A DNA stretch of 64,000 nucleotides, from the IMG/VR virus record IMGVR_UViG_3300030107_003448, positions 1 to 64,000 of that record; one strand, 5' to 3'. Position 1 is the stretch's first letter, and every line of letters begins with the position of its first letter. The translations under genes were made by a program, and so were the position numbers. Shown piece after piece: positions 2,639 through 48,400 of this stretch. The notes under the pieces are model-generated. The model was not told where the DNA came from. It saw only the letters and a program-made list of their open reading frames with translations, and made no database searches. This DNA comes from a virus.

Positions 2639-3532
2639 ATGGTCCGAGAAGTTACGATACATGAGGTTGGTCCTCGTGATGGTTTGCAAGGTTTGCCTTA
2701 TGTGCTTTCTGTGGACCAAAAAAGGCATTTTATTGAGGCTATAGCACATTCTGGAATTAAAAATATAGAGGTTGCTTCTTTTGTTCACCCGAAGTTAGTG
2801 CCCACTATGGCAAACGCCGAAGAAGTTTACAATGAAGTGGAATATTTACAATATGAACCATATCAAAATATGAATTTGAGCACTCTTGTTATGAATCAAC
2901 GTGGTTTTGATAGAGCATTAGAATCTGGAGTCGAAAATTTTAATATTTGCTTTTCTACCTCTGAAGAATTCAATAAAAGGAACTTTGGTAAAGAACAAAC
3001 GGAAATTTTACAAGAATACGCACAAATGTTACAAAATATACCTAAAAATCAAGTCAAAGTATACATTTCTTGCTTTTTTGGTTGCCCATTCAAAGGATTA
3101 ATGTCCGATAGCACATTATTGACTGCTTTTCAAGAAGCAGCCAAGTTAGGTAACACAATTGTGCTCTGTGACACCACTGGAAGGGCTTTTCCACTACATA
3201 TTAAGTATAATTTGGCTTTAGTTGCTACTTTACCCGAATATAAGCAAGTAAGCATTGCCTTACATCTACATGAAGGCGAAAAAGGCAAAGAATTCTTATT
3301 TGATAATATAAAAGCGGCTTTTGATTTTGGTATTAGGAATTTTGATACTAGTATCGGAGGAATTGGAGGCTGTCCGTTCATGCCTCACTCTGGCGGCAAT
3401 GTCCCAACCGAAGATTTAGTCGAATGGTGCGAAAAACAAAATATTGATTGCGGTATTGAGCGCAAAAATTTAGATTCTCTTATTAATTTAGTAAAAAATG
3501 AGTTTAGAGAAAAGGAGTGTGAAATAAGATGA
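2639..3532 (+). CDS. hmgL: Hydroxymethylglutaryl-CoA lyase (DRE-TIM metallolyase), auxiliary metabolic gene
   Basis: EVGPRDGLQ, IEVASFVHPKLVP, LCDTTG, metal-binding HLH and GGIGGCPF..SGGNVPTED motifs; 297 aa, full length. Confidence 0.9.
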   Translation: MVREVTIHEVGPRDGLQGLPYVLSVDQKRHFIEAIAHSGIKNIEVASFVHPKLVPTMANAEEVYNEVEYLQYEPYQNMNLSTLVMNQRGFDRALESGVENFNICFSTSEEFNKRNFGKEQTEILQEYAQMLQNIPKNQVKVYISCFFGCPFKGLMSDSTLLTAFQEAAKLGNTIVLCDTTGRAFPLHIKYNLALVATLPEYKQVSIALHLHEGEKGKEFLFDNIKAAFDFGIRNFDTSIGGIGGCPFMPHSGGNVPTEDLVEWCEKQNIDCGIERKNLDSLINLVKNEFREKECEIR

Positions 3533-8223: not shown

Positions 8224-8403
8224 ATGCAACAACCCCCTTTAGAAGAAGAAAATGAAAGAGACGCAGCAGTTGCTCAAGCAAAAACAACTCAAGGCAAAAA
8301 GCCGGGAGATGCAAAATTTGGACAAAACGCTTTATTGATGACTAATAAAGCACACACTTTTGCTTTAAATTTAGCCCTTGAGGAACTTAAGAAACATACA
8401 TAA
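8224..8403 (+). CDS. 59-aa protein ending in tag-like ALNLALEELKK
   Basis: Read manually; GAGGTGA SD at about 8210-8216. Confidence 0.65.
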   Translation: MQQPPLEEENERDAAVAQAKTTQGKKPGDAKFGQNALLMTNKAHTFALNLALEELKKHT

Positions 8404-8435
8404 TCTTTATTTTGCCCTCTCGTGTGGCCTCTAAT

Positions 8436-8984
8436 ATGGCAAGCAGTAGTGATGAACAACAGGCCGAAATTAGATTAATGGGTTTAATACTCGCCCAATC
8501 TATTTTTGTTGGTGTAGCAGTTGGTATTTTTGAAGCGGAATTATGGTTGAAGTTAGATGGGGCATTAATGAATGGTATGACTTATTCAATGGCCGCTTTC
8601 GCAATGCAAGGGCTAGGCTATTATGTTTTCAAAATGTTTTTCCAACAAGGATTAGACGATAGAATGCATATACAAGAATCAGAGCGCAGAAGGCAAAGAC
8701 GTTATAATGATATGCAAAGAGTATTCGATACTCGTAGAGAAGACATGGAATTGCGTATGCAAGAAGCACAGATGGAACAAGAGTTACGTTGGATGGAAAA
8801 TAATCCCGGTAGAACTCCGTCTTGGGCCGCTTTAGAAAATGAACAAAAGATTTTCAATCCAAATCCTCCTGCTCATTCAGCAAATGTAGATGAATCTATG
8901 AATTTAGGAATTACATTTAATGAAAAAGACGAAACAGAGGCTCCTCGTGGAAAAGATGGAAAATTCAAAAAGAAAGAAGAATGA
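8436..8984 (+). CDS. Membrane protein (2 TM helices) with coiled-coil C-terminal part
   Basis: ORF 8412..8984; hydrophobic LMGLILAQSIFVGVAVGIF and MTYSMAAFAMQGLGYYVF, then E/R/Q-rich helix. Confidence 0.75.
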   Translation: MASSSDEQQAEIRLMGLILAQSIFVGVAVGIFEAELWLKLDGALMNGMTYSMAAFAMQGLGYYVFKMFFQQGLDDRMHIQESERRRQRRYNDMQRVFDTRREDMELRMQEAQMEQELRWMENNPGRTPSWAALENEQKIFNPNPPAHSANVDESMNLGITFNEKDETEAPRGKDGKFKKKEE

Positions 8985-8993
8985 GGTCTGTTT

Positions 8994-9239
8994 ATGGGCC
9001 GAATCTTTAAGACACCTAAAGACGATGCTACCGAGGCTACTTTACGGGCTATGCATTTAGCAAATGAATTAGATAATGCATATGAAAGAGTATGGGGATG
9101 GGGAAGGACTTTATTATTAGGAACTATTGCTGTTTTCATAGTATCTGCATATGAACATTATACTAATTGGAATTTATGGGAATCTACTGGTAATTGGATA
9201 AGTGATTGGGCTATTAGGCAACTGGAGAAATTGATTTGA
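8994..9239 (+). CDS. Single-TM membrane protein
   Basis: 81 aa; TLLLGTIAVFIVSAY; GAGGT upstream; abuts GTPase start. Confidence 0.75.
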   Translation: MGRIFKTPKDDATEATLRAMHLANELDNAYERVWGWGRTLLLGTIAVFIVSAYEHYTNWNLWESTGNWISDWAIRQLEKLI

Positions 9240-9956
9240 ATGTCTGCAATAGCAGGTTCCGCTCTTGTGGGTGGAATGGTATGGGCTAAAGAATTATGGA
9301 ATTATTGGAAACCACGTAGAGTTGGTATTTATGGCCCTTCAATGGTAGGTAAAACTACTTTAGATAGATTTATGACAACTCCCGGAGAAATGGAACCTAT
9401 ACCAGAAGAAGAACGCACTAACCATTATCGAATATTAGGTAAACATCTTTTACCAAAGCCTACAAGAAAAAGAATAGGTTGGAAAGGAGATAGGAGAGTA
9501 GTATATAGTTCTGATATTGGTGGAGAAGAAAGATTTTGGAGTTTATGGATTGATGATATGGTTCATCGTCAAGTTGAATCTGTTATATTTATGTTCGATG
9601 ATAGGTCATTAAGAGGAGGAGATGATGCATTACAAGCAGTTGGTGGTTTCAAATATTTAGTTGATTCAATTATTAATAAACAATATCGTTATCGTAAGTT
9701 TTCTACATGGTGGAAAGGCAAAAAATATGCACCTAAAAGTATTATGTTAGTAGCCAATAAAGCAGATAAATGGTGGGATGATAATGCTAGTATACTTTGG
9801 CAACAACAAAGACTTGGTGAACATAAAGTATTTGATGCTTTTCGACCAGATTTAATCAGATTACAAAAAGCAGGTATTCCTACTAGACGTAGTTTTATGG
9901 CTACAAGAATTGGTTGGCAGGTAGAGACCACATTAATTGATTTATTAACTGGTTGA
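9240..9956 (+). CDS. Ras-superfamily (Arf/Rab-like) small GTPase
   Basis: G1 GPSMVGKT, G2-like PT, G3 DIGGEERFWSLW, strand VIFMFD, G4 MLVANKAD, G5-like FMAT; hydrophobic/amphipathic N-terminal extension. Confidence 0.85.
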   Translation: MSAIAGSALVGGMVWAKELWNYWKPRRVGIYGPSMVGKTTLDRFMTTPGEMEPIPEEERTNHYRILGKHLLPKPTRKRIGWKGDRRVVYSSDIGGEERFWSLWIDDMVHRQVESVIFMFDDRSLRGGDDALQAVGGFKYLVDSIINKQYRYRKFSTWWKGKKYAPKSIMLVANKADKWWDDNASILWQQQRLGEHKVFDAFRPDLIRLQKAGIPTRRSFMATRIGWQVETTLIDLLTG

Positions 9957-9995
9957 TTTCGATAAGACTATATGAATCCCCGTATTCCGATAGGT

Positions 9996-10403
9996 ATGAT
10001 GAGCCCATTTGATATGGCATGGAGTGTATTAAAATCCGCTTCAACTGATTCTATATTAAAATTAAGAAGGATTCGTGAAGATGGCTCTGAAATTGGTCCT
10101 CATGAATTACAAGCGTTATTCCAAAGAGTGCATCAGTTAGATGCAATGTTTGAGCAGACTGGAAATCCTGAATTTAAACAACAAGCAGATGAATTGGCTC
10201 AAATGTTAGAAGGCGCTGTAACTAGAGGAGCAGAAAATTTTTACGGTCCTTTTGATATGACAGGAGTAGAAGAAGCCCCAATTATGCCAGCGTTTAGTAC
10301 CCAAACGGCTGAACCAGTAGACGTAGACACAGGCGCAATGGCTACTATGCCACACCAACAATCTGTGGGTGTTAAACAACCAGAACAAGAGCCAGAATAT
10401 TGA
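9996..10403 (+). CDS. Protein with N-terminal MMSPFDMAWSVLK tag
   Basis: ORF 9972..10403; likely start at 9996 or 9999. Confidence 0.7.
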   Translation: MMSPFDMAWSVLKSASTDSILKLRRIREDGSEIGPHELQALFQRVHQLDAMFEQTGNPEFKQQADELAQMLEGAVTRGAENFYGPFDMTGVEEAPIMPAFSTQTAEPVDVDTGAMATMPHQQSVGVKQPEQEPEY

Positions 10404-10450
10404 TTGCCCTCATGAGCAACCTTTTTTTGTCTGTTTCACTTGGAAGGTAC

Positions 10451-10639
10451 ATGGCGTACCCTACAGACACGACTTTAATTGTCCGCACTTCGACTAAAAG
10501 TGAGTCTTTACGAGTTACAATTCCACAATGGGTAGTGAAACAATTAAAGTTGAAGCCGGGTCACCGTGTACAATGGGAATTAAAACCACAAGGCGATGAG
10601 TTTCGTTTAATTTTAAACCCAATTAAAAAAGAGGAATAA
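10451..10639 (+). CDS. AbrB/MazE/SpoVT-type swapped-hairpin DNA-binding protein
   Basis: SLRVTIPQWVVKQLKLKPGHRVQW signature; ATG 10451 after GGAAGGT. Confidence 0.8.
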   Translation: MAYPTDTTLIVRTSTKSESLRVTIPQWVVKQLKLKPGHRVQWELKPQGDEFRLILNPIKKEE

Positions 10640-10641
10640 AT

Positions 10642-11646
10642 ATGAATTTTGGTTTACCGACATTTGGAACACAACAACAAGGAGCGCCTTTAGCGGCAGC
10701 AAACGAAGCGCATTTGAAAAGTTTGTCACAGCAAGGAAATATGTCTCTTAGTTATGCTGAATTAATGGAACAACAAGTTGCTCAGTCACAAATGCAAAAA
10801 GTGGCTATGGAGCATAATATAGAAGTTCCTAAAGTTAACTTTTATCCTAGCCGACACCCAAATCCATTAAAGGCTAGAAAGCAAGATATTAAACAAGCAT
10901 ATCGTTTACTTAAACCTGTTAAAAGGTCTATTTTTTCTCCTAGGCGCTGGTTATTTGGCGGTAAATATAAACATAATAAACAAAGTCATGTATGTGTAAT
11001 TGATGGTTGTGATGTTAGAACATTAATACAACACGATAATTTATACATGCGAATTACAGATGAAGAAACAGGGCGCAGTTTATGGGAAATGTATTGGCAA
11101 AACCCTGTAACAGGAGAGCCTAATGCTTTTGTCGCTCGTGAAGGAGTGACAAGTGGAAGAAAAATGGCAGGCACTTATTGCCCAGAACACTTACATTTGT
11201 ATCATTTATTGTGTAAATGGGAAGCAGAAGAAGAAAAAGAGAAACTCAACAATCCTAGAACAATTAAAGAAAGAATCAAAAAAGGTGTATCAACTGTTGC
11301 TGTGCCTGTATCTGTAGTTAAAAAGAAAGATAATACCCCTCCGATGCTTCAAAAATATGAGGGATTTTTTACAGAATTAAATAAAGATTCCAAAAAGACT
11401 GCTGGTATTGATGTTTTACATTATCAAAATCCAATAACAGGGTTAAATGATGTTACTATGATTGTTTTTGACTTAAGAATTTTTCAACATGAATTAGAAC
11501 AAATGGAATTACAAGCACAGGAAGCATTCCAAAATGTATTATTACAACAACAACAAGTCCAAGCCCAACAAACATCGATGGTTGCCCCACAAGCAGAATT
11601 AAATCAGCAACAAACTAATGAAGCAGGTATTACTGCGGGAGTATGA
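10642..11646 (+). CDS. Hypothetical protein, Q-rich termini, possible Zn site (CVIDGC...YCPEH)
   Basis: 334-aa ORF, GAGG SD. Confidence 0.75.
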   Translation: MNFGLPTFGTQQQGAPLAAANEAHLKSLSQQGNMSLSYAELMEQQVAQSQMQKVAMEHNIEVPKVNFYPSRHPNPLKARKQDIKQAYRLLKPVKRSIFSPRRWLFGGKYKHNKQSHVCVIDGCDVRTLIQHDNLYMRITDEETGRSLWEMYWQNPVTGEPNAFVAREGVTSGRKMAGTYCPEHLHLYHLLCKWEAEEEKEKLNNPRTIKERIKKGVSTVAVPVSVVKKKDNTPPMLQKYEGFFTELNKDSKKTAGIDVLHYQNPITGLNDVTMIVFDLRIFQHELEQMELQAQEAFQNVLLQQQQVQAQQTSMVAPQAELNQQQTNEAGITAGV

Positions 11647-12305
11647 TACGTATGGGATTATTTGGTAATAACGCACCCGCTAATGCTGGTCCTTCATTGA
11701 ATTTAAGTGCATCAGGAGCACCAGCAGTTAGCCCATTTCAAAATGTCGGAGTAGGTTTACCTGCTGCTCAACATGTGCCTCAACAACAAACTTTTATGGG
11801 CGGAATGATGGGAGGAATGGGAATGAACCAACAACAACAACAAATGATGCAAAATGGACAAATTACCCCCCCTTCAGAAACAGAAATAATGTTGGCTATG
11901 CTAAATTCTGGCTATCCTATAGAAAAATGGATTACAAGCACAGGTTTTCAAAACTTTGTCCAAATGATGTCAAATATGATGGAGTTAGCCATTGTAGGAT
12001 TTTTTCGTGACGCTAAATTCATACTAGATGAAGAAACAGGTATGATGTCACTTGACCCGACATCGTTACCGTCTAATTTACAAACTATTTCTAGCGAAAA
12101 TGTAGTTAATGAGTTTTCAAGTGTTGTGAGTAACGCAGACCAAGTTAAAAATATGCAAATGGCTCAACAACAACAAATTTTGACTTTTGCTCAACAAAGC
12201 ATGATGGGAGGCGCTTTAAATGCTGCTCTGACTAATCCCGGCATGATGGAAAAAATGGGCAGTGGAATAGGTTCACTAGGCCGTGGATTAATAGGAATGA
12301 AATAA
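11643..12305 (+). CDS. Hypothetical Q/M/G-rich protein with glycine-rich hydrophobic C-terminus
   Basis: 220-aa ORF, ATGA overlap. Confidence 0.75.
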   Translation: MIRMGLFGNNAPANAGPSLNLSASGAPAVSPFQNVGVGLPAAQHVPQQQTFMGGMMGGMGMNQQQQQMMQNGQITPPSETEIMLAMLNSGYPIEKWITSTGFQNFVQMMSNMMELAIVGFFRDAKFILDEETGMMSLDPTSLPSNLQTISSENVVNEFSSVVSNADQVKNMQMAQQQQILTFAQQSMMGGALNAALTNPGMMEKMGSGIGSLGRGLIGMK

Positions 12306-12314
12306 GGTGATAAA

Positions 12315-12560
12315 ATGAGAAAGCAACAACCAATACTTCCAATAGGATTTAGCGAAACAACAATGAGTATATTGAACCCAAAGAAAAGAGTTATCATAGA
12401 TATGATAATGGTACAATTACTAAGTTTAATGGCTACATTTACATTAATTTTAGTATTTGCAAGTGGTAGATTAGATTCTACTGAAATGACTTATGCTTTA
12501 GTAGGATTATTTGTTAGCATTTTAATGTTAGGAAGTGTTTACTCTCGCATAGCAAAGTGA
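12315..12560 (+). CDS. Small two-TM membrane protein (holin-like topology)
   Basis: 81 aa, two hydrophobic helices; AGGTGA-N4-ATG. Confidence 0.75.
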   Translation: MRKQQPILPIGFSETTMSILNPKKRVIIDMIMVQLLSLMATFTLILVFASGRLDSTEMTYALVGLFVSILMLGSVYSRIAK

Positions 12561-12793
12561 GCGTCCCATTTTCCTAATGGACAACTGCTACTCGCTAATG
12601 CAGTTTTAACTCTCATTTGACAACCACATTGAGTGCAACGATTAAGTGACTTTTGCCAATGAGGACATGATGCACAAATAGACCTTCTTTTTTCTTTAAT
12701 TTCTGGTGAAACATATCTTCTATAGAATACATCGCTTGCTGCTTTTTTAAGGTCTTTTAATGTAGACCTTGGGGCTCGTGGTAATCTCCGCAT
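12539..12793 (-). CDS. Small Cys-rich Zn-binding protein (CASC..CTQCGC..CPLGKW, DUF6171-like pattern)
   Basis: 84-aa ORF; TTTATG box about 27 nt upstream. Confidence 0.7.
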   Translation of the reverse strand: MRRLPRAPRSTLKDLKKAASDVFYRRYVSPEIKEKRRSICASCPHWQKSLNRCTQCGCQMRVKTALASSSCPLGKWDAHFAMRE

Positions 12794-17945: not shown

Positions 17946-19351
17946 GTAATATTTTGGTGAGAAAAGGACCAAACATAGCAGAATCAGTAGAACCTGCTGT
18001 TACTGGTGGCTCATCTACCGCTATAATGCCCGGCGGTCAAATATTTTTTAGTGGACCAGCAGGTTATCAAATACCTATTGGAGGAGGTAGAAGTAAAGGA
18101 AATATTACTCCTTCGCAGCGAGATTTGACTCGTCTTAGTAGAGATAGACCTGCTATTGGAAATATTAAAGTAATGAAACCAGAACAAAGAGCGGTTTTGA
18201 ATCGACCAACAGCACCAGTAGATTCAGTGGGCGTTATACGTGATATGGGACGTAGAAATGAATTAGCCAGAGGAGCAAAGCGAGATAAATTAGCGAGACT
18301 ATTAGGTCGAGGGCTTGCTGGATATGCTGCTTTGGCCTCATCAGATAGTGATGATTTAATGGATGCAGGTGGCCGTATGTATGGTACTTATGCAGCAACC
18401 CGTGCTGCAACTGGAGAGGGTGCTCTTGAAGGTAGTTATGACCAAGACGAAGAAGGTAATATTACTAGAACTCCAAGTGCTTTTGAAAGAGGATTTGGAG
18501 ATTTAAGAGAAGGTGCCCAAGAAACTGGGGGCGCTATTGGTAGAGGACTAGTTGGAGTCAAAGATTGGGCTAAAGAAAAATGGAGTCAATTAAAAAATAA
18601 ATGGCCTACTAGAGAATCTGTAGCAGTAGAGCCGTCTATGTATGAAAGAATTGACGCAATGCCTCACCCTGCTCAAACATTGAGTGGGGGATATTTTGAC
18701 CCACGAATGCGAGCATTAGTGAGTGATGATTCACAATTAGCAGTAGACGCAGTGGCAAGAAGGCAAGCAAAACAACAAAGACAAAATCAAATAAATACTC
18801 AAAAGATAGGAGAAGTTCTTGTTAATCCAACAATGACTGGACAAGCCCCTCCACCACCAGTAGGTATGGCAACTGTAGGTATGAATATGCCTCCACCAAC
18901 TCAAGCCACAGGTTTCAACCCACAAGCAGTAGGCCAAGGAGAGGTGGGAACAGAACCTGTTATGAATACAACACCTACTGACCCCAAGCAAGGGACTCTT
19001 GACCCATGGTTGAATAATCCAAATCAACAACCAAATGCTGTTGGTGGAGGTCCAGAAGACCCATTTAAGGACTTAAAAGGAGAACCAATGGATATGGCTT
19101 GGTCATTATTGAAAGAAAATCAACCATGTAAAGATTGTGGGCAACCTGCCCCTACTAATTTTCGTATGCCGATTTGGGAATTAAATGGTTTATGTTTTGA
19201 TTGTATTGACAGAAGAATGAAAGAGATGGGGGCAACACAAGAAGCGAATGAAGAAACAGGGCAACCTGCAACAACAATGCGTGACTTACTTAATGCTAAA
19301 ATAAGTGAAGCAGGAATAGCAGGAGACCGACAAAGAGAGGATTTAGCATGA
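17942..19351 (+). CDS. Low-complexity protein with internal GEPMDMAWSLLK tag followed by CxxC..CxxC zinc finger
   Basis: 469-aa ORF, ATGA overlaps; tag at 19082-19114. Confidence 0.7.
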   Translation: MSNILVRKGPNIAESVEPAVTGGSSTAIMPGGQIFFSGPAGYQIPIGGGRSKGNITPSQRDLTRLSRDRPAIGNIKVMKPEQRAVLNRPTAPVDSVGVIRDMGRRNELARGAKRDKLARLLGRGLAGYAALASSDSDDLMDAGGRMYGTYAATRAATGEGALEGSYDQDEEGNITRTPSAFERGFGDLREGAQETGGAIGRGLVGVKDWAKEKWSQLKNKWPTRESVAVEPSMYERIDAMPHPAQTLSGGYFDPRMRALVSDDSQLAVDAVARRQAKQQRQNQINTQKIGEVLVNPTMTGQAPPPPVGMATVGMNMPPPTQATGFNPQAVGQGEVGTEPVMNTTPTDPKQGTLDPWLNNPNQQPNAVGGGPEDPFKDLKGEPMDMAWSLLKENQPCKDCGQPAPTNFRMPIWELNGLCFDCIDRRMKEMGATQEANEETGQPATTMRDLLNAKISEAGIAGDRQREDLA

Positions 19352-20811
19352 GTGACGTTAATCAACTCATTCGTGAAATGGACTGGGAAATGTCCTCTAA
19401 GTCTTTTGAATATTTTTTCACCGATGTATTAGGATATGATTACAATGCTCATCATGAGCAGTGGGTAGACCGTTTGAATAACAATAGATACTATGTTGTT
19501 AAAGCGGCTCGTGACCATGGTAAGTCTACATTGTTTATGTCATATGCACTATGGATTGCCGCATTTAATCCTAATACACATATCATGATATTTTCACACT
19601 CATTAGAACAGACACTTGAGCACATGCGTATGATTCGTAGTCATATTGAAGGTAATGATTTGCTTGTTCATTTGAAACCAACAGGACAGCCTTGGGCTAA
19701 ATCGTATTTTGAATTTTCAAATGGTAGTCGTCTTATGGCTAAATCGGTAGGTGGTGCTACTCGTGGTTTCCACCCCGATGTTGTAGTTTGTGATGATATT
19801 CTCTGGGGTTCGACTGCTGGAGAGTTAGCCAGAACTGCTGATTGGTTCTATTCCGTTCTATTACCAGTTCTGCACCACACTGGTCGTTTGATGATTGTTG
19901 GAACGCCGTTTTCGTATAATGACTTGTATACGGAATTAGAATCTAAAGATGCGTTTATTGTAGAAACATTTCCCGCTATGGATAGTGAAGGAGTAGCGTT
20001 ATGGCCTAATCGTTGGGATGAAGAATCTTTAATGCAAAGGCGTATGTCTATGCCTGCTATACAATTCGCTCGTGAATATCTCTGTGAGCCTATTCATGAT
20101 GTTGCGAGTATGTTCCCAATGGATATTTTAGAAACTGCTAGAGACCCCGATTTAGTTTTAATGAGTCGTGCCGAATCTGAATATAATGAAGCAGGTGAAG
20201 TAGCAGGCGTATTTGGTAATCATTTCATAGGTTGGGACCCTGCGATTGCGTCTGATAAAAACGCAGATTATACAGCAATGATAACTATGCGTACTATAGA
20301 TAATGTAAAACAAATTGTAAATCATGTTCATCAAAAAGGATTAAATTCTGAAGCACAAAAAAGGCATATTATTTTATTGAATAATAGATTTCAACCAGAC
20401 CTTATTGAACTAGAAGGTAATAATTTCCAAAGAATGTTTGAAACTGAATTAAGAGGAATGGATATACCGATAAGAACTTTCATGACTACACGTGCACGTA
20501 AAGAGAGTTTATTTATGAGTTTACTTATGGCTTTTGAACAAGGAGATATACGCACCCCTTATGGTAATGAAGAAAGCAAAAAGTTTACACACGAGTTAGA
20601 AACCGAGTTGAATAGATTTGGTATGACTAAGCAAGGTAAATTAGAAAGTGTAGGTGTGCACGATGACCTTGCTATGGCTTTAGCATTGGCTAATTGGGGT
20701 TCTAAAGAATTCAAAGGTAGTGTAGTTATGTTAGATGATTTCTTGCCCGGCTTTGGTGATTGGGTTGAAGGTAATTTAAGACCTGCGGGTCATGATTGGT
20801 TTGTGGAGTGA
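19348..20811 (+). CDS. terL: Terminase large subunit
   Basis: Walker A AARDHGKST, Walker B VVVCDD, IVGTP motif, RNase-H-like GWDPA and HDDLAMALALA. Confidence 0.95.
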   Translation: MSDVNQLIREMDWEMSSKSFEYFFTDVLGYDYNAHHEQWVDRLNNNRYYVVKAARDHGKSTLFMSYALWIAAFNPNTHIMIFSHSLEQTLEHMRMIRSHIEGNDLLVHLKPTGQPWAKSYFEFSNGSRLMAKSVGGATRGFHPDVVVCDDILWGSTAGELARTADWFYSVLLPVLHHTGRLMIVGTPFSYNDLYTELESKDAFIVETFPAMDSEGVALWPNRWDEESLMQRRMSMPAIQFAREYLCEPIHDVASMFPMDILETARDPDLVLMSRAESEYNEAGEVAGVFGNHFIGWDPAIASDKNADYTAMITMRTIDNVKQIVNHVHQKGLNSEAQKRHIILLNNRFQPDLIELEGNNFQRMFETELRGMDIPIRTFMTTRARKESLFMSLLMAFEQGDIRTPYGNEESKKFTHELETELNRFGMTKQGKLESVGVHDDLAMALALANWGSKEFKGSVVMLDDFLPGFGDWVEGNLRPAGHDWFVE

Positions 20812-22743: not shown

Positions 22744-24516
22744 ATGGCAGAAGGCGAAAGTAGAATTGGTAGATTTCTGTCTACATTAGCGAAACCTTTC
22801 AAACGTAGAGAAACCCCTGCTCCACAAATGCCACTTTGGACAAGTGGTATTCAAGAGCCTGTTTTAAGTCAAGGTATTACTTTACCTGCATTATATGCTG
22901 TATCTAATGAAAATCTTATTCTTAGAACTGTATTAAGCACAATTCGTCAAGAAATGTTTAGGAGAGGGTGGTTTTGGGAAAAGAAATTTCGACACAAATG
23001 TGATACTTGTGATATGGAATTCCAACATGATGTAGAAACTTGTGAAGATTGTGGAGGACCAGTGCGTACCCCCGACCATGATGATTTAATATATGCTAAA
23101 TGGTTATTTGAAAAAGACAATAGTATGGAACAAAACTTTTTACAAGTATTATCTGAAATTGAAAATGATTTAAATATCGTAGACGATGCTTTTTTAATTT
23201 TAGTAAAAGAGTATTTTGTAGATAAAGAAACTAATACTCCTGCTTTCTTTAGAATTAAAGAAATAATTAGAGGAGACCCTGTGTTTATGCGTATTGTTTC
23301 TGATAAAAGAGGAGTTAGGGGAGGGCGGTATAAAGTTTGCTTATTGCACCGTGACCAAGTTTCATATCCGGGCCAAGAAGATGAATGTCAAGTGTGTGGT
23401 AGTGAATTACATGATGTTCACCACATTAATACAGCAGGTTCTGGAAAAACTCAATATTATGTAGAAGGAGAAGTTATCCATGTTTCTAAATATAATCCTT
23501 CTAAATTATATGGACGTCCTCCTGTAAACACACTTTGGAGACAAGCCATGACATTAACAGCCATGGATAATTATATTTATACCGCTTATCAAAAGAGAAG
23601 GACCCCTAAAGGTATTATTTCTGTAACAACAGACAATTTAGAATCAATGAAATCATTTTGGAAATCTGTAGATGAAAAAATGGAGCGTGACCCTCACTAC
23701 GTGCCTCGTGTAGGTATTGAATCGAGTAGTGGTAGAGGTGGAGTAAATTGGGTTAAATTTATGGACACTTTAGAAGAAATGCAATATATCGCTGTTCGTG
23801 ATGAGATTAGAATGCGAATTGCTTCATTTTATGGAGTATCAAATGTATTTATGATGGACACTGGTAAATCTGGTGGTCTCAATAATGAAGGTATGCAAAT
23901 GGTTGTAACTAATAGGTCTGTAGAATTTGGACAGAAAGTATACAGCGATTTATTATTTCCAAAATTATTAGCCGCTATGGGTATTAAAGATTGGAAATTA
24001 ACTTTACGACCATCCGAAGAAGAAGATGAAGTCACTCGATTGCGTAGAGATGAGATGGAAGTTAATATTGCGCAAAGAATGATGATGCTTGGGTTTAAAC
24101 CTCAATTAATAGACGAACATGAAAAAGATATTCGGTTCTCTTATGCTGCTCCTTCACCAGAACAAATGGGTGCTATGCCACCCGGTGGTGGTGGAATGAT
24201 GCCACCCGGCGGGATGATGCCTCCGGGAGGTGGAATGATGCCTCCGGGAGGTGGAATGATGCCACCCGGTGGAATGCCACCTAATATGATGAGAGGAATG
24301 CCTATGGCTGGTGCAGGAATGCCTCCAATGCCTCCTTCTCAACCCGGCGGTGAAGGTGTAGGAATTAGAACTCCTAGTGGTCCTGCGGCACCAACAAGAG
24401 GGACTATGACTTCTGGTGCACCAGTTCAAACTACTCAACAAAGAGGAGTTCAACCCGGCCCTGCTGGACAAGCATCACAGGCTTTAATGAATGCTAGAAG
24501 ACCGAGAGGACTATAA
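22744..24516 (+). CDS. Portal protein with Zn-ribbon insertions and MPPGG-repeat C-terminal tail
   Basis: Position after TerL; DLNIVDDAFLIL, EVIHVSKYNPSKLYGRPP, RIASFYGVSNVFM portal-like motifs; CDTC/CEDC and CLLH/CQVC. Confidence 0.85.
   Translation: MAEGESRIGRFLSTLAKPFKRRETPAPQMPLWTSGIQEPVLSQGITLPALYAVSNENLILRTVLSTIRQEMFRRGWFWEKKFRHKCDTCDMEFQHDVETCEDCGGPVRTPDHDDLIYAKWLFEKDNSMEQNFLQVLSEIENDLNIVDDAFLILVKEYFVDKETNTPAFFRIKEIIRGDPVFMRIVSDKRGVRGGRYKVCLLHRDQVSYPGQEDECQVCGSELHDVHHINTAGSGKTQYYVEGEVIHVSKYNPSKLYGRPPVNTLWRQAMTLTAMDNYIYTAYQKRRTPKGIISVTTDNLESMKSFWKSVDEKMERDPHYVPRVGIESSSGRGGVNWVKFMDTLEEMQYIAVRDEIRMRIASFYGVSNVFMMDTGKSGGLNNEGMQMVVTNRSVEFGQKVYSDLLFPKLLAAMGIKDWKLTLRPSEEEDEVTRLRRDEMEVNIAQRMMMLGFKPQLIDEHEKDIRFSYAAPSPEQMGAMPPGGGGMMPPGGMMPPGGGMMPPGGGMMPPGGMPPNMMRGMPMAGAGMPPMPPSQPGGEGVGIRTPSGPAAPTRGTMTSGAPVQTTQQRGVQPGPAGQASQALMNARRPRGL
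24175..24285 (+). repeat. Imperfect tandem repeat encoding (M)MPPGG(G) x5-6
   Basis: ATGCCWCCSGGN units in portal 3' end. Confidence 0.8.
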
Positions 24517-31602: not shown

Positions 31603-31646
31603 AACTGAGGGTATTATATACATGAACAAATTTGGAGGTAGATTGT

Positions 31647-33014
31647 GTGTTATCTGAACCAAGACTCCGGACACTCCCTAGAGAGGGTATTACTATCCTT
31701 AAAGGGAATGACCTTGTTGTCGCAGGATATGCAAGCGTAGAATTGGTAGATAAACAAGGTGACTTAATAACAAAGGAGGCATTAAAGAACGCATTTCATA
31801 AATTCATGGAAAACCCGGGATATAGAAATGTACAATTAGCGCACTCAAATATACAAGTAGGAGAAGTAGTCGGAGAACATACAGATACAAGTGGGAGGTT
31901 ATGGAAAAGCGAAGTTGACGATGTCGGAATGTTTGTAGTAGTAAAACTGAGAAATGACATCGAAAAAGCCAGAGAAGTCGCAGCCGAAATCCGAAAAGGC
32001 AATCTTAAAGGATTTAGTATAGGTGGACAAGCATTCAAAAGGATGAATAAAAGTGACAAAGAACATGGCTCTTATACAGAAATATCGAAACTAGAACTTC
32101 ATGAAGTAACAATCTGCGAAAAAGGAATAAACCCAGAAGCACAATTTAGAATATTAAAACAAGATAAAGGTGAAAAAATGACAATAGAAAAAAATGAGCA
32201 AACAGATACTCTTGACCAATTATCAAGTGTATTAAATCGTTTGGAAGGTAGAATTGATTCTATGGAAAAAGGCGAAATGCCTCCATTCATGGAAGATAAG
32301 AAAGAATCCAAAGACGATAAGAAAGAAGAAAAAGAAAACGGCGACAATGGTGACAATGGTGACGATATGGAAAAATCACAATACAGTGATGTTATTTCCA
32401 GTGAATATTTGTCATGGTTAGAAGACACAGTAAAAAGCGGTGGTGTAGATACTGCTGCTGCTCGTGCTCACTTTGACCAAACCAACAAAGCACAACTTGG
32501 AGGCTATGATACAGGTAGCCCGGGTAGTGACCATGGACAAGCAGCCGGTAGAACTCAAACAGAAGGTAAACCAGAAGTACCAAAGGCTAACTTTGGGACT
32601 GGAGGAAAAGGTAAGGCTTCTAGTATGAACAAAGGACAATTCTTGAATCCTTCCAATGTAAGTTCAACAGACATGGAAGCAGCATACCAAGTGTATAAAG
32701 CAGCAAGAATTGAACAAGAAATGAAACAAAACCTTGGAGACATTTACAATGAGAGATTCGCAAAAGAAGCACAAGTAGAAAAATCAGAAGCAGCAAAACG
32801 TTCTTTTGATGCTCGTGGACCTCTTGGTGAAATCCAAAAATCACTTAGTGCGCTATCAGAAAGAATTGATAACCTATCAAGTGATAATACAGGAGTTACA
32901 TTACAAAAATCACAAAATGTAAGTAACGTTGAAATTCCATCTACAGAACAATTAGCAACAATGGAGTGGAATGATGTCCACAACCTAGCAAACAGTGTAT
33001 GGAGAGGAGAGTGA
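31647..33014 (+). CDS. HK97-type prohead protease fused to scaffold domain
   Basis: VAGYASVELVDKQGDLI, QLAH, LKGFSIGG, LHEVTIC..GINPEA; GGAGGT SD before GTG 31647; K-S/K-A-rich acidic C-terminal part. Confidence 0.9.
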   Translation: MLSEPRLRTLPREGITILKGNDLVVAGYASVELVDKQGDLITKEALKNAFHKFMENPGYRNVQLAHSNIQVGEVVGEHTDTSGRLWKSEVDDVGMFVVVKLRNDIEKAREVAAEIRKGNLKGFSIGGQAFKRMNKSDKEHGSYTEISKLELHEVTICEKGINPEAQFRILKQDKGEKMTIEKNEQTDTLDQLSSVLNRLEGRIDSMEKGEMPPFMEDKKESKDDKKEEKENGDNGDNGDDMEKSQYSDVISSEYLSWLEDTVKSGGVDTAAARAHFDQTNKAQLGGYDTGSPGSDHGQAAGRTQTEGKPEVPKANFGTGGKGKASSMNKGQFLNPSNVSSTDMEAAYQVYKAARIEQEMKQNLGDIYNERFAKEAQVEKSEAAKRSFDARGPLGEIQKSLSALSERIDNLSSDNTGVTLQKSQNVSNVEIPSTEQLATMEWNDVHNLANSVWRGE

Positions 33015-33019
33015 ATAAA

Positions 33020-34153
33020 ATGGCAAGAAATTATATACGAACAGTCACAGACTTAGAAAGATATTATTATGGTGCAGGAAACGCTATGGGATATTCCTAC
33101 AGTGGTTCTGAACTATTAAAAAGCGATAGCCCAATGATGAGTACCACAGCAGGTACATACCAAGCAATCTATGGAAGAAAAGTATGGAGTCAATTGAACC
33201 AAGAATTCAATGCTTTCTCTATACTACCTAAGAAACCATGGGACAGAAGTGGATGGCGAATTATCACTGGCAGAGCATCCTTCACAAAAGGTGGCGGTGT
33301 AGCAGAGAATGCAACTCTACCAGACACAACAAAACCAACATTCCTACATGTTGCAGCAAAACCAAAGACAGTTGCTCACACATTCGATATGAGTGAAGTA
33401 GCAATCTTCCTTGCTGACAAAGATGATGGTATGGGTGACATCAGACAAGTTCTAAAAGAAGAAATGGGTAAACACCATGCAGAACATGTCAACAGAATGT
33501 TACTACAAGACATGGACACAGTAGCAGGTAACGACTTTGAATCATTAGACCGTATCACAAGTGATGCAGGTTCATCAATGGGCGGTACATATGGTGCAGC
33601 AACAGACCACGACTTGTATTCAATTACTAGAGATGCATCTTCTGCCTTCCACAGTGCAGAAGTAAGTGTAAGTGGTACAAAAGGGACTAACAGAACTCTA
33701 TCACTAGACCACTTGGATGCAATATTCCAACAAATCTGGACTCGTGGTGGAAATCCAAAAGTATTAATGACAGGATATGACACATTAATGAGAATCCAAC
33801 AATTGTTGCAAACACAACAAAGATTCATGGAAGAAAAGAGAGTTACTCCAACATTCAATGGTGTTAAAGGTGTACCCGGTATCGAAGCAGGATTTGTAGT
33901 AGCAACTTACAATGGTGTGCCACTAATCCCATCCAAAGATGTAACAGCAGATGGAATTAGTCGTATATATGCACTCGACACAGATTACACATGGTTCAGT
34001 ACTGCAATACCAACGCAATACTTTGAATCTGGAATTGAAACTGGTGACCCATTCGGTATCAACCGTCTAGGTCAAGAAGGACTATACAGAACAATGGGCG
34101 AAGTATGGTGCTCATTCTTCGGAGGACAAGGTTCAATACGTGACCTAAGTTGA
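33020..34153 (+). CDS. Major capsid protein (HK97 fold)
   Basis: Follows protease; GGVAENATLP, YNGVPLIPS; strong SD GGAGAGGAG; highly biased codon usage. Confidence 0.9.
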   Translation: MARNYIRTVTDLERYYYGAGNAMGYSYSGSELLKSDSPMMSTTAGTYQAIYGRKVWSQLNQEFNAFSILPKKPWDRSGWRIITGRASFTKGGGVAENATLPDTTKPTFLHVAAKPKTVAHTFDMSEVAIFLADKDDGMGDIRQVLKEEMGKHHAEHVNRMLLQDMDTVAGNDFESLDRITSDAGSSMGGTYGAATDHDLYSITRDASSAFHSAEVSVSGTKGTNRTLSLDHLDAIFQQIWTRGGNPKVLMTGYDTLMRIQQLLQTQQRFMEEKRVTPTFNGVKGVPGIEAGFVVATYNGVPLIPSKDVTADGISRIYALDTDYTWFSTAIPTQYFESGIETGDPFGINRLGQEGLYRTMGEVWCSFFGGQGSIRDLS

Positions 34154-45462: not shown

Positions 45463-48400
45463 ATGGTAGTAGTATCAAAGGCAGGGCACGCTCTTGTATT
45501 AAATGGTATCAGTGATGGTATTATTATCCCAGATTCTCATTTTTCTCATACAGGTATTCAAAGTGAAAGAGGGGATTTTTCTGGCCCTAGTATAGATAAT
45601 GTTGCTTTAAACACACAATCAGATACAACTGGTATAGGTAGATTACATACTTTAACTATTGAAGCATGGGTAAAACCAGATTGCGGTGGAGTGGTTCTTA
45701 GTAAAGATGGTTTGTTTGAATTAAAAGTAGGACAAGTAGGAGAACCCGGGCCTGCTGTTTTAACTGCTCATATGAATAATCCACATCAAAATAAAACAAT
45801 TATCGTTGCTAGTGCTATTAAAAATACAGGCACCCCTAGATGGGAAGGTACAGTTTTTCCTCGGCATGGAGTTGATGTACACGGCTCTTACAATAGTGAT
45901 GCTTCTGCTACAATTGCTACTGGATTAAATATAGGACATAGGGAATTATTACATGTAGTCGGTCTTATCAGTAGCAATAAAGTTGCTTTATTTATTAATG
46001 GGACTTTAATGGCTCAAGAATTATTACCGACAGGAGATTTCATGCTTGATTTTTCTAGCAGTGATATATTTATCGGGGGTAAAGGAGGAGAATTTCGTGG
46101 AGCAATTGAATCTGTTCATTTATCAAGAGGGTTTGATGCTCAAATTCTTAAACCAGACCCCCCTATAATAAATAATAATACAATTGCTATTTGGAGATTT
46201 GAAGAACCTGCTGAAGTCCATAATACTGTTTATCAAAGTGGAGGGGAAACAGCAGCAGCCGATGGTAGCACGAAAACTGTTTCATTGTCAACTGCTGATG
46301 CTCAATCTTTAATTGCTACAATTACAGGTAATGCATATGATTCTACTTCTCCTTCCCTTGATTTAACTGCTTCTCCTTACTCTAGTGGTAATTATAAAGT
46401 AATGGATTTAGTTAGCGCCCCTGCTAGTCCTACTACAATTTTAGTGCCTCATACTCCTTATAATATTCTATTTAACCCAGATGGTTTAAATTTGAGCACT
46501 AAAAAGCCTAATCAAAAACCCCCAGAACGTTTGCGTTTATTAGGAATAAATGGCTCTACTGGTGTAATTAGTGTTGAAAGTATTCATTTAGATTTTTCAA
46601 TAGCAGGGGCACGTAGAGGGTTATTGCATAGTAAAACAGCAAATGTAGATGACCATTTTGTATTAATTTCTGGAGATTTATTAATTGATGGTGGAACTGG
46701 TCAACCTTATCAGCCCCCTCATTATGGTTCACAAGTTATTGATAGAACAGGACAAATGGTAATTGACGAAGGTAACTTTCAATACCATGGTTTAATTTAT
46801 TCTTCCAGAATGGCTACTACTACAACAGATAGTGATAATCCATATGCTGTCGTCTGGCCTTCTATAGATACAAAATTCCAAATGGGACATACTGGTAGAC
46901 ACACATTATCTATTCAAGAAGGACATCATTATTTACGACAATTACCAACACCGAATAATGAAATTATACACCAAAGCACAGACGCATCTGCTGATATTGC
47001 AGAAATTTATTTTGACGCATCCCACAAAGGATTAGAATCTGTTATACCTATTAATAGTAGATTAGATATTTATCGTGAAAGTCTAATATCGCCTGTTAGT
47101 AATATTATTAATTCTAGTTGGGCCTTTGGATTAGTCGATAATGGTAAAGCAGAAGGAAGTGGTCGAGAATTATTAGCCATAGGTGGAGTAGGTGCTAAAA
47201 CTGGAATAGGGCAGACGATATTTGACTATACTCCATTTTTATTGAAAGGTCCTATTGAAGCGCCATCGATGTCGCACGATTTTACTAATTATCGTAAACA
47301 TCATTTGCGACCAATTACTAAAAGTAGAATTGCTATTTTATCTGTACCTTCTTTAAATGATGCCTCTTTTGTAGGTGCAGGAAATCAAATAGCGCCTTTT
47401 GTTCAAATTCATTATAATGCTGTAGATATAACTGGACAAAGCGTAGGCTGTAAAGATAGTGGAGTAGAAATTGATAATGGTGGTGGATATACCGCAGGTA
47501 CTGCAACTTCTATGCAAGTATCTACTGTGGATATTAGAACAAAATTTGTAGTAGGCGATGCCGTATTTACTTCAAACGGAGATTTACTTGGTGTGATTAC
47601 TGCTATACCAGATGGTACACATTTTACTATAGGAGCAGGGACTAATGTAGCAGTAGCAGATAATGATAATTTATTTTCAATTAATCCTTTTTTACTAATA
47701 GAAAAAACTGTGCCTTCTGCTGATACTGTTTTAAATTCTACTGGGCCTGTAACAGTATACGATGCTATTCTTAATGACTTAGCAGATGCTGCAAAAGATA
47801 CACAATTATATGCGCCGGGTGGTTTAATTACTTTAGATACTTCAAATTCAGATGGGCAGTTACCCGATGTTGAATTAGAAAGTTTATTTCAATCAGACCC
47901 AGAAGAAGGAATCCATAATGAAGACGAATTAAATGAATCTTTAACTCCTCAAAATTATAGTTTGGTTCATCCTAGTGATGTGGCGAAAGCAAATCCTCAA
48001 CTCATCAATGCAGAACATACTACTATTGCTCATGATGCTGTATTCCATAGACTAGTGATTAATCAACAAAATATAGATTTAATAAATCAGTTAACAGAAA
48101 GTGCAAATTATTTTAGAAGAAATTCAAGTATTACAGGTAGTGGCGCAGGCGGTTACGATATAGGCAACACTAGTGCTGCTAGTCATTTAAATGAATCTTT
48201 TGATATTATATCTGCTAGAAAAATAGATGGGATGGAAAGTCAGTCTAAGCAGTTTTTGATACACCCTAGCGATAGGGCTCGTTTTTCTCAATTAACTAAA
48301 TTAAATACTACAAATAGTCGCCCCGAAGAACCAAATATAGTTTCTATTCAATATTTAATGACAAAAACAAGAGCGACTTCTATATCTTCTCAAGAGGGGT

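Follow-up and report, generated by a model that had tools for sequence, protein, structure and literature searches.

The window, by which we mean the whole 64,000-nucleotide stretch of viral DNA analysed here, contains at positions 8436–12560 a compact block of plus-strand genes running from o190 to o81b, with intergenic distances of 9, 0, 15, −4, 2, −4 and 9 nt; the block is closed by a convergent minus-strand gene (12539–12793). Its third gene encodes a small GTPase. Re-reading returned the open reading frames and coordinates of the first-pass annotation, the gene list of which had passed over o143 (9972–10403). The operon with membrane proteins that it described is also borne out: the block is operon-like, with o190 and o81 upstream of the GTPase gene. 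The core cassette is composed of a membrane protein (o190), a small single-pass protein (o81), the GTPase, o334 and o220.

The GTPase (9240–9956, plus strand) is 238 amino acids long. As read from the sequence, it contains a G1 motif, GPSMVGKT (residues 32–39; nt 9333–9356), a G3 motif, DIGG-E (residues 92–96, with DIGG at 92–95; nt 9513–9527), followed by W100 and W103, and a G4 motif, NKAD (residues 173–176; nt 9756–9767). These three had been reported earlier as marking a stand-alone GTPase and are confirmed; a candidate G2 (Thr60 in RTNH, the switch-I Thr) and a G5 (MAT, residues 220–222) are also seen. Among 273 unique full-length relatives, G1 (GxxxxGK[ST]) is kept in 270, RTx[HG] in 265 and Dx[GA]G in 270, with NKxD and MAT/VSA/ISA kept in nearly all, a degree of conservation that far exceeds chance. 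Glu96 occupies the position of the catalytic Gln. The replacement of Gln by Glu is real in this protein but is not a property of the family: by residue counts (Q 146, E 91, D 25 and H 6), Gln is the commonest state and Glu is specific to a sub-clade. With a single exception, members with a recognisable G3 have a polar residue (Q, E, D, H or N) here, and GTP hydrolysis is therefore probably kept.

The protein is almost certainly a genuine stand-alone Arf-like small GTPase. It falls within the small-GTPase fold, and the Arf family fills the best 14 VIA rows of its structure comparison. Its best full-domain profile matches in the PDB are ArfR1, Arl8 and Arl10; the family profile reaches Asgard ArfR1 and Arl8 at 1e-6 to 1e-5 and Rab33 at 4e-4. 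Thus, of the initial description as Arf/Rab-like, the Arf part is supported by both fold and profile, whereas the Rab likeness is weaker. PF00025 is carried by the nearest named Atlas clusters, weak Arf matches are found in 4 of 17 relatives (best 6e-4) and Roc matches in 6 of 17, and some family members bear the JGI label ‘GTPase SAR1 family protein’. The GTPase itself has no Pfam match at E up to 0.1, and a PF00025 search of the genome returned nothing at E up to 1. Compared with Arf and Arl proteins (Arf1, Arf6, Arl1, Arl8 and Asgard ArfR1, PDB 8OUM/8OUN), it lies below the PF00025 cut-off and is about 60 residues longer owing to three insertions, in the switch-I, α3 and α4 regions. It has Ser2 instead of Gly2, and so no myristoylation motif, and Glu96 instead of the catalytic Gln, the sequence reading DIGGE...W103. 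A Ras/Rab-type DxAG is found in 25 family members and characterizes the clade 2 relatives. Furthermore, the cassette partners are unrelated to known ArfGAPs and ArfGEFs, and the gene is carried by a virus of a non-Asgard archaeon.

For this family, a phmmer search over 1.84 billion representatives gave only 75 matches, all context-checked relatives (P0126-, P0128- and P0147-type) are on virus-type contigs, and among 185,579 species genomes only three short contigs carry the gene. No match was obtained in 50,697 phage records, in keeping with the earlier remark that such a GTPase is unusual for a head-tail virus, and the searchable literature holds no description of the cassette. From these searches, the family is a deeply divergent, virus-only Arf-like branch, very far from any cellular GTPase, and is restricted to magrovirus-type tailed viruses of marine archaea. 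In this it differs from the small GTPases of giant eukaryotic viruses, such as the mimivirus Rab (PDB 5XC5), which are clear Rab homologues from eukaryotic hosts; here, the family is confined to viruses and the virus is a prokaryotic tailed virus.

This distribution bears on whether the cassette acts on host functions, with the GTPase mimicking or disturbing a host small-GTPase pathway (vesiculation, polarity or division) or the membrane proteins blocking superinfection. Viral membrane proteins often mediate exclusion, and the restriction of the cassette to a marine lineage suggests a host-tied function. Archaea also use small GTPases for vesicle formation: ArvABC is an archaeal vesiculating GTPase operon, and ArvA acts on the cell membrane (PMC10927574). 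The ArvA–ArvB–ArvC (OapABC) system resembles the viral cassette in combining a small GTPase of the archaeal world, with an N-terminal hydrophobic helix, and dedicated operon partners, one of which bears Cys and His residues. However, the viral partners are different proteins and include integral membrane proteins. OapB (PF09846, DUF2073) is absent from the six-frame translated genome, in a search for which Haloferax and Methanosarcina served as matching controls, and OapC (PF09845, DUF2072, a Zn-ribbon protein) is absent from the whole genome. The analogy with ArvA/OapA drawn in the first-pass annotation thus fails at the operon level. The remoteness of the family from cellular GTPases and its viral location make a recent host-derived mimic unlikely, and a dedicated set of five genes, partners included, suggests a self-sufficient machine. 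We therefore regard action on host pathways or exclusion as improbable.

Several cassette products are predicted to contact the membrane. The GTPase begins with a predicted hydrophobic helix (residues 2–23; nt 9243–9308, plus strand) that is greasy over about 14 residues, and a hydrophobic N terminus is present in every one of the four virus clades. This helix had been likened to the hydrophobic or amphipathic helix of Arf. Its hydrophobic character stands, but its hydrophobic moment is no higher than that of shuffled sequences and it is thus not significantly amphipathic; with a KD of 1.07 over 19 residues, it is too short for a transmembrane (TM) segment. On these grounds, the GTPase itself is a putative membrane binder.

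The first core gene, o190 (8436–8984, plus strand), has an ATG start, with an upstream TTG at 8412 also possible. Its product has one strong TM segment (residues 14–32; KD 2.27) and a second hydrophobic stretch that is sub-threshold, followed in the C-terminal part by a helix of about 105 amino acids rich in R, E, Q and M, probably cytoplasmic, and a Lys-rich tail. The two TMs previously assigned to this coiled-coil protein are clear in relatives from two other clades but not here. Of the 97 loci of clades 1–3, 95 have a homologue (between-clade hhalign probability 93–96%); clade 4 has at this position a 2-TM analogue without detectable homology to o190. The product of o81 (8994–9239, plus strand), the stop codon of which touches the GTPase start codon, combines a polar stretch of about 37 amino acids at the N terminus with one TM and a C-terminal tail rich in Trp. 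Of the 80 clade-1 loci, 79 have this gene; jackhmmer detected it in 13 divergent loci, and open reading frames of 72–79 amino acids with the same architecture lie immediately 5′ of the GTPase gene in all four clades. At the far end of the block, o81b (12315–12560, plus strand) encodes an 81-residue hairpin protein with TMs at 30–48 and 58–76. It occurs in 80 clade-1 and 12 clade-2 loci and is absent from this position in clades 3 and 4. In size and topology o81b is a putative holin-like protein; o190 and o81b both fit a holin in these respects but have no holin match in Pfam, PHROG or NCBIfam. The TM segments of o190, o81 and o81b support the view that the cassette is probably a membrane-associated module.

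Between the GTPase and o334 lie two genes that, from their distribution, are clade-specific accessory insertions outside the conserved core. The variable o143 (9972–10403, plus strand) is found by tblastn in only 5 of 80 related loci and has no family match in Pfam, PHROG or NCBIfam. The next gene (10400–10639, plus strand) encodes a small AbrB/MazE-like (SpoVT-AbrB) protein with weak PrlF and ChpS antitoxin matches in NCBIfam; 77 of the 80 clade-1 loci carry the gene, and clades 2–4 lack it altogether. Its initial designation as an AbrB regulator holds only as a sub-threshold call (PF04014, E 5.2e-4, 20.4 bits, under the 24.7-bit cut-off), and it is not part of the core.

The two soluble-type partners show no likeness to any known GAP, GEF, coat or lytic protein. 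The orphan soluble protein o334 (10642–11646, plus strand) has a confidently folded core at residues ~75–210, with an AF2 pLDDT of 75 for the protein; it has no PDB match by sequence or fold and no family match in Pfam, PHROG or NCBIfam. In the alignment, C118 and C180 are invariant and H183 and H188 near-invariant. It is the partner most faithfully linked to the GTPase: the four clades give 180 loci, 175 of which have the two genes side by side, and in clades 2 and 3 these abut or overlap. The Gln/Met/Gly-rich protein o220 (11643–12305, plus strand; 11% Met) has a conserved MGLFG-type N terminus, a central domain with an invariant E–N pair and, at the C terminus, a hydrophobic tail rich in Gly that may be a membrane binder. 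By profile comparison it is homologous across all four clades (hhalign 99% for clade 1 versus 2, 71–81% for clades 1/2 versus 4 and 96% for clade 3 versus 4).

Synteny across related viruses reveals that the neighbours are co-conserved with the GTPase: four clades retain the core, even after relocation and with GTPase identity as low as about 30%. Gene order is identical in all 80 clade-1 loci. For o190 and o81, homology holds in three clades, and clade 4 has proteins of matching architecture. In this last clade the cassette is placed between the MCP and tail genes instead of upstream of the terminase region, with its internal order kept; thus, it relocates as one unit. Conservation of gene order is widespread in these viruses, and co-conservation could partly be inherited synteny, an explanation weakened by the clade-4 relocation. 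Of the records selected by MCP, the 10 that extend sufficiently far upstream all have the GTPase gene; the five that lack it are cut off within 23 kb on that side of the MCP gene. The cassette is always co-oriented with the morphogenetic block, inside or adjoining it, a late-block position that fits morphogenesis as well as egress.

The clade-4 location, a usual site of head-completion and ejection genes, raises the question of whether the cassette proteins are packaged or act as assembly chaperones, for instance as ejection or pilot proteins whose GTPase-controlled assembly would give a channel through the host membrane during entry. Ejection proteins are typically small and hydrophobic (P22 and T7). 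By contrast, no cassette protein has a structural PHROG or Pfam match; a weak ‘head closure’ match of o220 (E 0.053) was not reproduced in 24 relatives, which gave no consistent PHROG match; and some 20 kb separate the cassette from the head genes in the clade of the window. Moreover, a profile search found neither the GTPase nor o334 in HCTV-1 and HVTV-1 (Druskaviridae; MCP 33% identical), the closest cultured relatives, so the cassette is not generally required for such virions. We know of no precedent for a packaged small GTPase. A role in the virion is thus quite improbable.

A second reading is that the GTPase and its partners set up or label a membrane-bound site at which replication or virion assembly takes place, or target and insert viral membrane proteins in an SR-β/Sar1-like manner, with the Met-rich o220 handling hydrophobic segments. 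Sar1 with Sec12 and Sec23/24 (COPII), and SR-β with SR-α, likewise combine a membrane-proximal Arf-like switch, an integral membrane partner and soluble effectors, and Sar1 and SR-β have at the catalytic position the His also seen in some viral relatives. The Arf/Sar/SR-β-like fold, the greasy N terminus, the two integral membrane partners, the Met content and hydrophobic tail of o220 and the location beside or inside the morphogenetic block all agree with such a platform, which we nonetheless consider unlikely.

The virus genome is 100.7 kb long, 94% complete, with about 95 open reading frames. With 38% GC and genes for thermosome, SNF2 and PolB, it would appear to be a group-A magrovirus infecting Marine Group II archaea (PMC5434244), and the host setting envisaged previously (a wall-less host, Haloferax) is a poor fit. 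Searches of the ~95 open reading frames turned up no lysin, peptidase or holin family, a 5,700-residue one having been scanned against Pfam only. The lack of a recognisable lysin, noted before for the window, thus extends to the whole genome, and no conventional lysis cassette was found elsewhere in it. To our knowledge, the lysis proteins of archaeal viruses are largely unknown, and a lack of Pfam matches does not for this reason prove the genome to be free of lysins. The way in which tailed archaeal viruses exit the cell is still an open question (PMC10791045).

We propose that the cassette is a GTP-switched device acting late in infection on the host cytoplasmic membrane, the likeliest outcome being timed remodelling or breaching for virion exit; we place this just short of an even chance. 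Egress specifically is a more tentative assignment, and no likelier is its fullest form, a GTPase-timed egress machine in which the Arf-like switch licenses or recruits the small membrane proteins and replaces holin–endolysin logic. A late, host-directed role is favoured by the constant co-orientation with the morphogenetic block and by the absence of the GTPase and o334 from HCTV-1 and HVTV-1, and exit by the lack of another lysis candidate among the open reading frames. When GTP-bound, the GTPase would insert its greasy N-terminal helix into the membrane beside o190 and o81. The o334 protein may be a dedicated regulator or effector of the GTPase, possibly through a Cys/His metal site, a proposal alongside which we note the o334–GTPase gene overlap in two other clades. 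The o220 protein would be recruited to the membrane by its hydrophobic tail and, in this clade, the two-TM o81b would add a holin-like element. The membrane would be opened at a set time and virions would leave, the cassette substituting for the missing holin–endolysin genes. It resembles holin–endolysin cassettes in being a compact unit on the late strand with small 1–2 TM proteins that have charged tails (o190 and o81b); however, it has no lytic enzyme or holin family match, and a GTPase with two orphan soluble proteins occurs in no described lysis cassette.

With this cassette, the Arf-like GTPases gain a deeply divergent virus-only branch with two partners of unknown fold. The five core genes and the two-TM protein of this clade form a small set that can be cloned and tested. 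If the proposal is true, one of the most abundant virus groups of the surface ocean would have its first identified release mechanism, and Arf-style membrane control would extend beyond eukaryotes and Asgard archaea.

The 238-aa GTPase (9240-9956) carries the G1 (GPSMVGKT), G3 (DIGG, with Glu96 and then W100 and W103) and G4 (NKAD) motifs claimed for it in the first-pass annotation, together with a switch-I Thr in RT60NH and a G5 reading MAT. Its close relatives in marine metagenomes number 474. The motifs are kept in ~270 of the 273 unique full-length relatives and, among the matches listed, full-length relatives are all near 238 aa. Judged by this motif conservation and constant length, the gene is real and under selection for nucleotide binding. 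The catalytic position is occupied by Gln (146), Glu (91), Asp (25) or His (6), and is polar in all members with a recognizable G3 except one, suggesting that GTP hydrolysis is kept across the family. One clade has DxAG at G3, as in Ras/Rab-type proteins.

No Pfam, PHROG or NCBIfam model was significant for the GTPase, it reached no significance in a PF00025 search of the genome, and only 75 matches, many of them fragments, came from searching 1.84 billion representative proteins with the single sequence. Searched against PDB sequences, the family profile (A1) ranked Asgard ArfR1 first (1.7e-6), followed by Arl8/Arl10 (7e-6 to 2e-5), then Rab33B, Arl5 and IFT22 (about 4e-4 to 8e-4) and, lower, Arf1, Sar1, G-alpha, SR-beta and Ras. 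AlphaFold gives a confident model (pLDDT 86, pTM 0.85), and the language-model neighbours are viral clusters first, then bacterial clusters partly with PF00025. We conclude that the protein belongs to the Ras superfamily and is Arf-like, but lies outside the curated Arf family, from which it differs in three insertions and in having no Gly2; of the earlier Arf/Rab-like assignment, the Arf part is better supported than the Rab part. Some members bear the automatic JGI label 'GTPase SAR1 family protein', so the GTPase domain had already been recognized by pipelines. The N-terminal helix, described earlier as hydrophobic and amphipathic, is indeed greasy, but its amphipathicity is not demonstrable. 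A search for longer proteins found no fused forms, which is weak evidence.

The viral sequence is a single contig of 100,678 bp (CheckV completeness 94%), and the window covers its first 64 kb, with a GC content of ~38%. The plus strand carries a head–tail morphogenetic block with the large terminase (19348-20811, +), portal (22744-24516, +), prohead protease (31632-33014, +) and HK97-type capsid protein (32999-34153, +). Minus-strand genes in the remainder of the contig encode DNA polymerase B, a thermosome-type chaperonin and an SNF2 helicase; clamp-loader, nuclease and TFIIB genes are found there as well. Philosof et al. (PMC5434244) reported a thermosome subunit from groups A and D of the magroviruses, and an SNF2 helicase from group A; because both are present here, the genome looks like that of a group-A magrovirus, and from the same study we infer Marine Group II archaea (Poseidoniales) as the host. 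The capsid protein is 33% identical to those of the Druskaviridae haloviruses HCTV-1 and HVTV-1, the nearest cultured relatives by this protein. The TFIIB/TFB homologue, just beyond the window and beside the thermosome gene (65847-66395 of the whole genome, G000, minus strand; L001:3821-4741), combines a TFIIB zinc ribbon with a pair of cyclin-like repeats (E 9e-21 and 2e-16); through such a factor for transcription initiation, the virus could reprogramme the host RNA polymerase. The window also holds a gene of the HMG-CoA lyase family (HMGL-like; 2639-3532, Pfam E 9e-26); to our knowledge, viruses of this type are described in the literature as having no auxiliary metabolic genes. A single 5,700-aa ORF lies 3' of the tail genes (45463-62565); Pfam matches it in one place only, a Laminin_G_3/concanavalin-like domain close to the N-terminus (E 2.4e-7).

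The GTPase gene is part of a one-strand cassette (o190, o81, GTPase, o143, AbrB-like gene, o334, o220 and o81b; 8436-12560, +), the ORF positions of which, as annotated earlier, were confirmed on the sequence. The intergenic gaps are 9, 0, 15, −4, 2, −4 and 9 nt, and the 3' end of the gene string is closed by a convergent gene. An AT-rich box, CTTTATTTT, in 8400-8435, ~25 nt upstream of the ATG at 8436, could be a candidate archaeal TATA element giving a leaderless cassette transcript. A bacterial sigma-70/terminator scan found fewer sites than in shuffles; its consensus is bacterial and not applicable to archaea. The minus-strand gene at 12539-12793 shares 22 nt with the 3' end of o81b and encodes an 84-aa Cys-rich protein with a match to PHROG 13558 (E 1.9e-15) and a weak one to DUF6171; roughly half of the related loci have it.

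In 80 IMG/VR loci of the window's own clade, clade 1 (GTPase identity 61-81%), the order is essentially invariant: o190, o81, GTPase, (AbrB), o334, o220 and o81b, then an HTH/zinc-ribbon protein. Three more distant clades (2–4) were added to these. Using iterative profiles over the four clades, the GTPase and o334 were found together in 175 of 180 loci, and hhalign identified o220 as homologous in every clade. Clades 1–3 have homologous versions of the two upstream membrane proteins; clade 4 has others of equal size, position and topology in their place. The claimed coupling of the GTPase to its neighbours holds for the upstream membrane proteins, o334 and o220 but not for the AbrB-like gene, which, like o143, is an insertion specific to the window's clade, and the AbrB match of which is itself sub-threshold. 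The clade-4 members are complete genomes of ~100 kb that have the cassette between the capsid and tail genes; the window has it ~20 kb upstream of the head genes. Because it keeps its internal order while changing genome position, the cassette is a functional unit and not mere inherited synteny. Each of the clade-4 records G016-G019 (those of loci L110, L168, L181 and L157) has two separate polymerase B matches, which in three of the four are in separate frames with stops between, a pattern recalling the split polymerase gene of group-B magroviruses (PMC5434244). The chaperonin gene is absent from these complete genomes.

The core of o334 is confidently modelled, with C118 and C180 invariant and H183 and H188 near-invariant; no relatives were detectable by sequence or fold. 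In clades 2 and 3 its gene abuts or overlaps that of the GTPase (gaps of −22 to +22 nt), which points to o334 as a direct partner of the GTPase. A complex prediction for o334 residues 60-312 (alignment A3) with the GTPase (A1) scored 0.00 (mark, 0.32) and is uninformative either way. The o220 protein is rich in Gln, Met and Gly; a conserved MGLFG-type start is followed by a central domain and then by a hydrophobic Gly-rich C-terminal tail. A PHROG hint that it is the head closure protein Hc1 (E 0.053) was rejected, as it was not reproduced in 24 relatives. The 81-aa o81b is a two-TM hairpin, and o190 has one strong TM and a weaker hydrophobic stretch in place of the two TMs first assigned to it. 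The N-termini of o81 and o220 (8994-9010 and 11652-11666; also the o220 relatives in alignment A5) are of MG(R/I)IF and MGLFG type. They resemble eukaryotic Arf or N-myristoylation starts, which may be coincidence; we know of no N-myristoyltransferase in archaea. None of the cassette partners matches OapB (PF09846) or OapC (PF09845), and the parallel drawn earlier with ArvA/OapA is accordingly reduced to a loose analogy with ArvABC (OapABC), the archaeal vesiculating GTPase operon.

We favour a membrane-directed late function for the cassette, on indications from sequence and gene context. One is the presence of membrane partners and the greasy N-terminus of the GTPase. Another is the constant association with the morphogenetic strand. 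A third is that related haloviruses with similar virions have no cassette. Finally, the earlier remark that there is no recognizable lysin holds for the about 95 ORFs of the genome, among which no peptidase or holin was recognized either. Egress would be the leading specific reading, a tentative one and less likely than not; its rivals are a membrane assembly or targeting platform, a role in the virion or in ejection, and host interference.

By our searches, the GTPase family is restricted to viruses. In tblastn, none of 50,697 phage records matched the GTPase; the cassette region, the GTPase and o334 had no blastn or tblastn matches in the phage collection; and the GTPase and o334 profiles matched neither HCTV-1, HVTV-1 nor a Methanomassiliicoccales virus. 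As a positive control, the same GTPase profile matches magrovirus records. Among 15 IMG/VR records chosen by capsid protein alone, ten have the GTPase, including the sole 100%-complete one; the other five all stop <23 kb upstream of the capsid gene, short of where the cassette lies in this genome. No IMG/VR loci were found for the distant relatives P0129 and P0170, and the searchable papers on magroviruses or other Poseidoniales viruses make no mention of a GTPase. Across 185,579 prokaryotic species (one genome each), the family occurs only on three GTDB contigs of 8-16 kb (L100, NZMJ01000140.1; L101, JABLTJ010000060.1; L102, NZQM01000026.1). These cassette contigs are of magrovirus type and sit in MAGs labelled Maricaulis, Parvibaculum and an Asgard archaeon; most simply, they are probably mis-binned viral DNA, and could give rise to wrong host predictions or unfounded claims of gene transfer.
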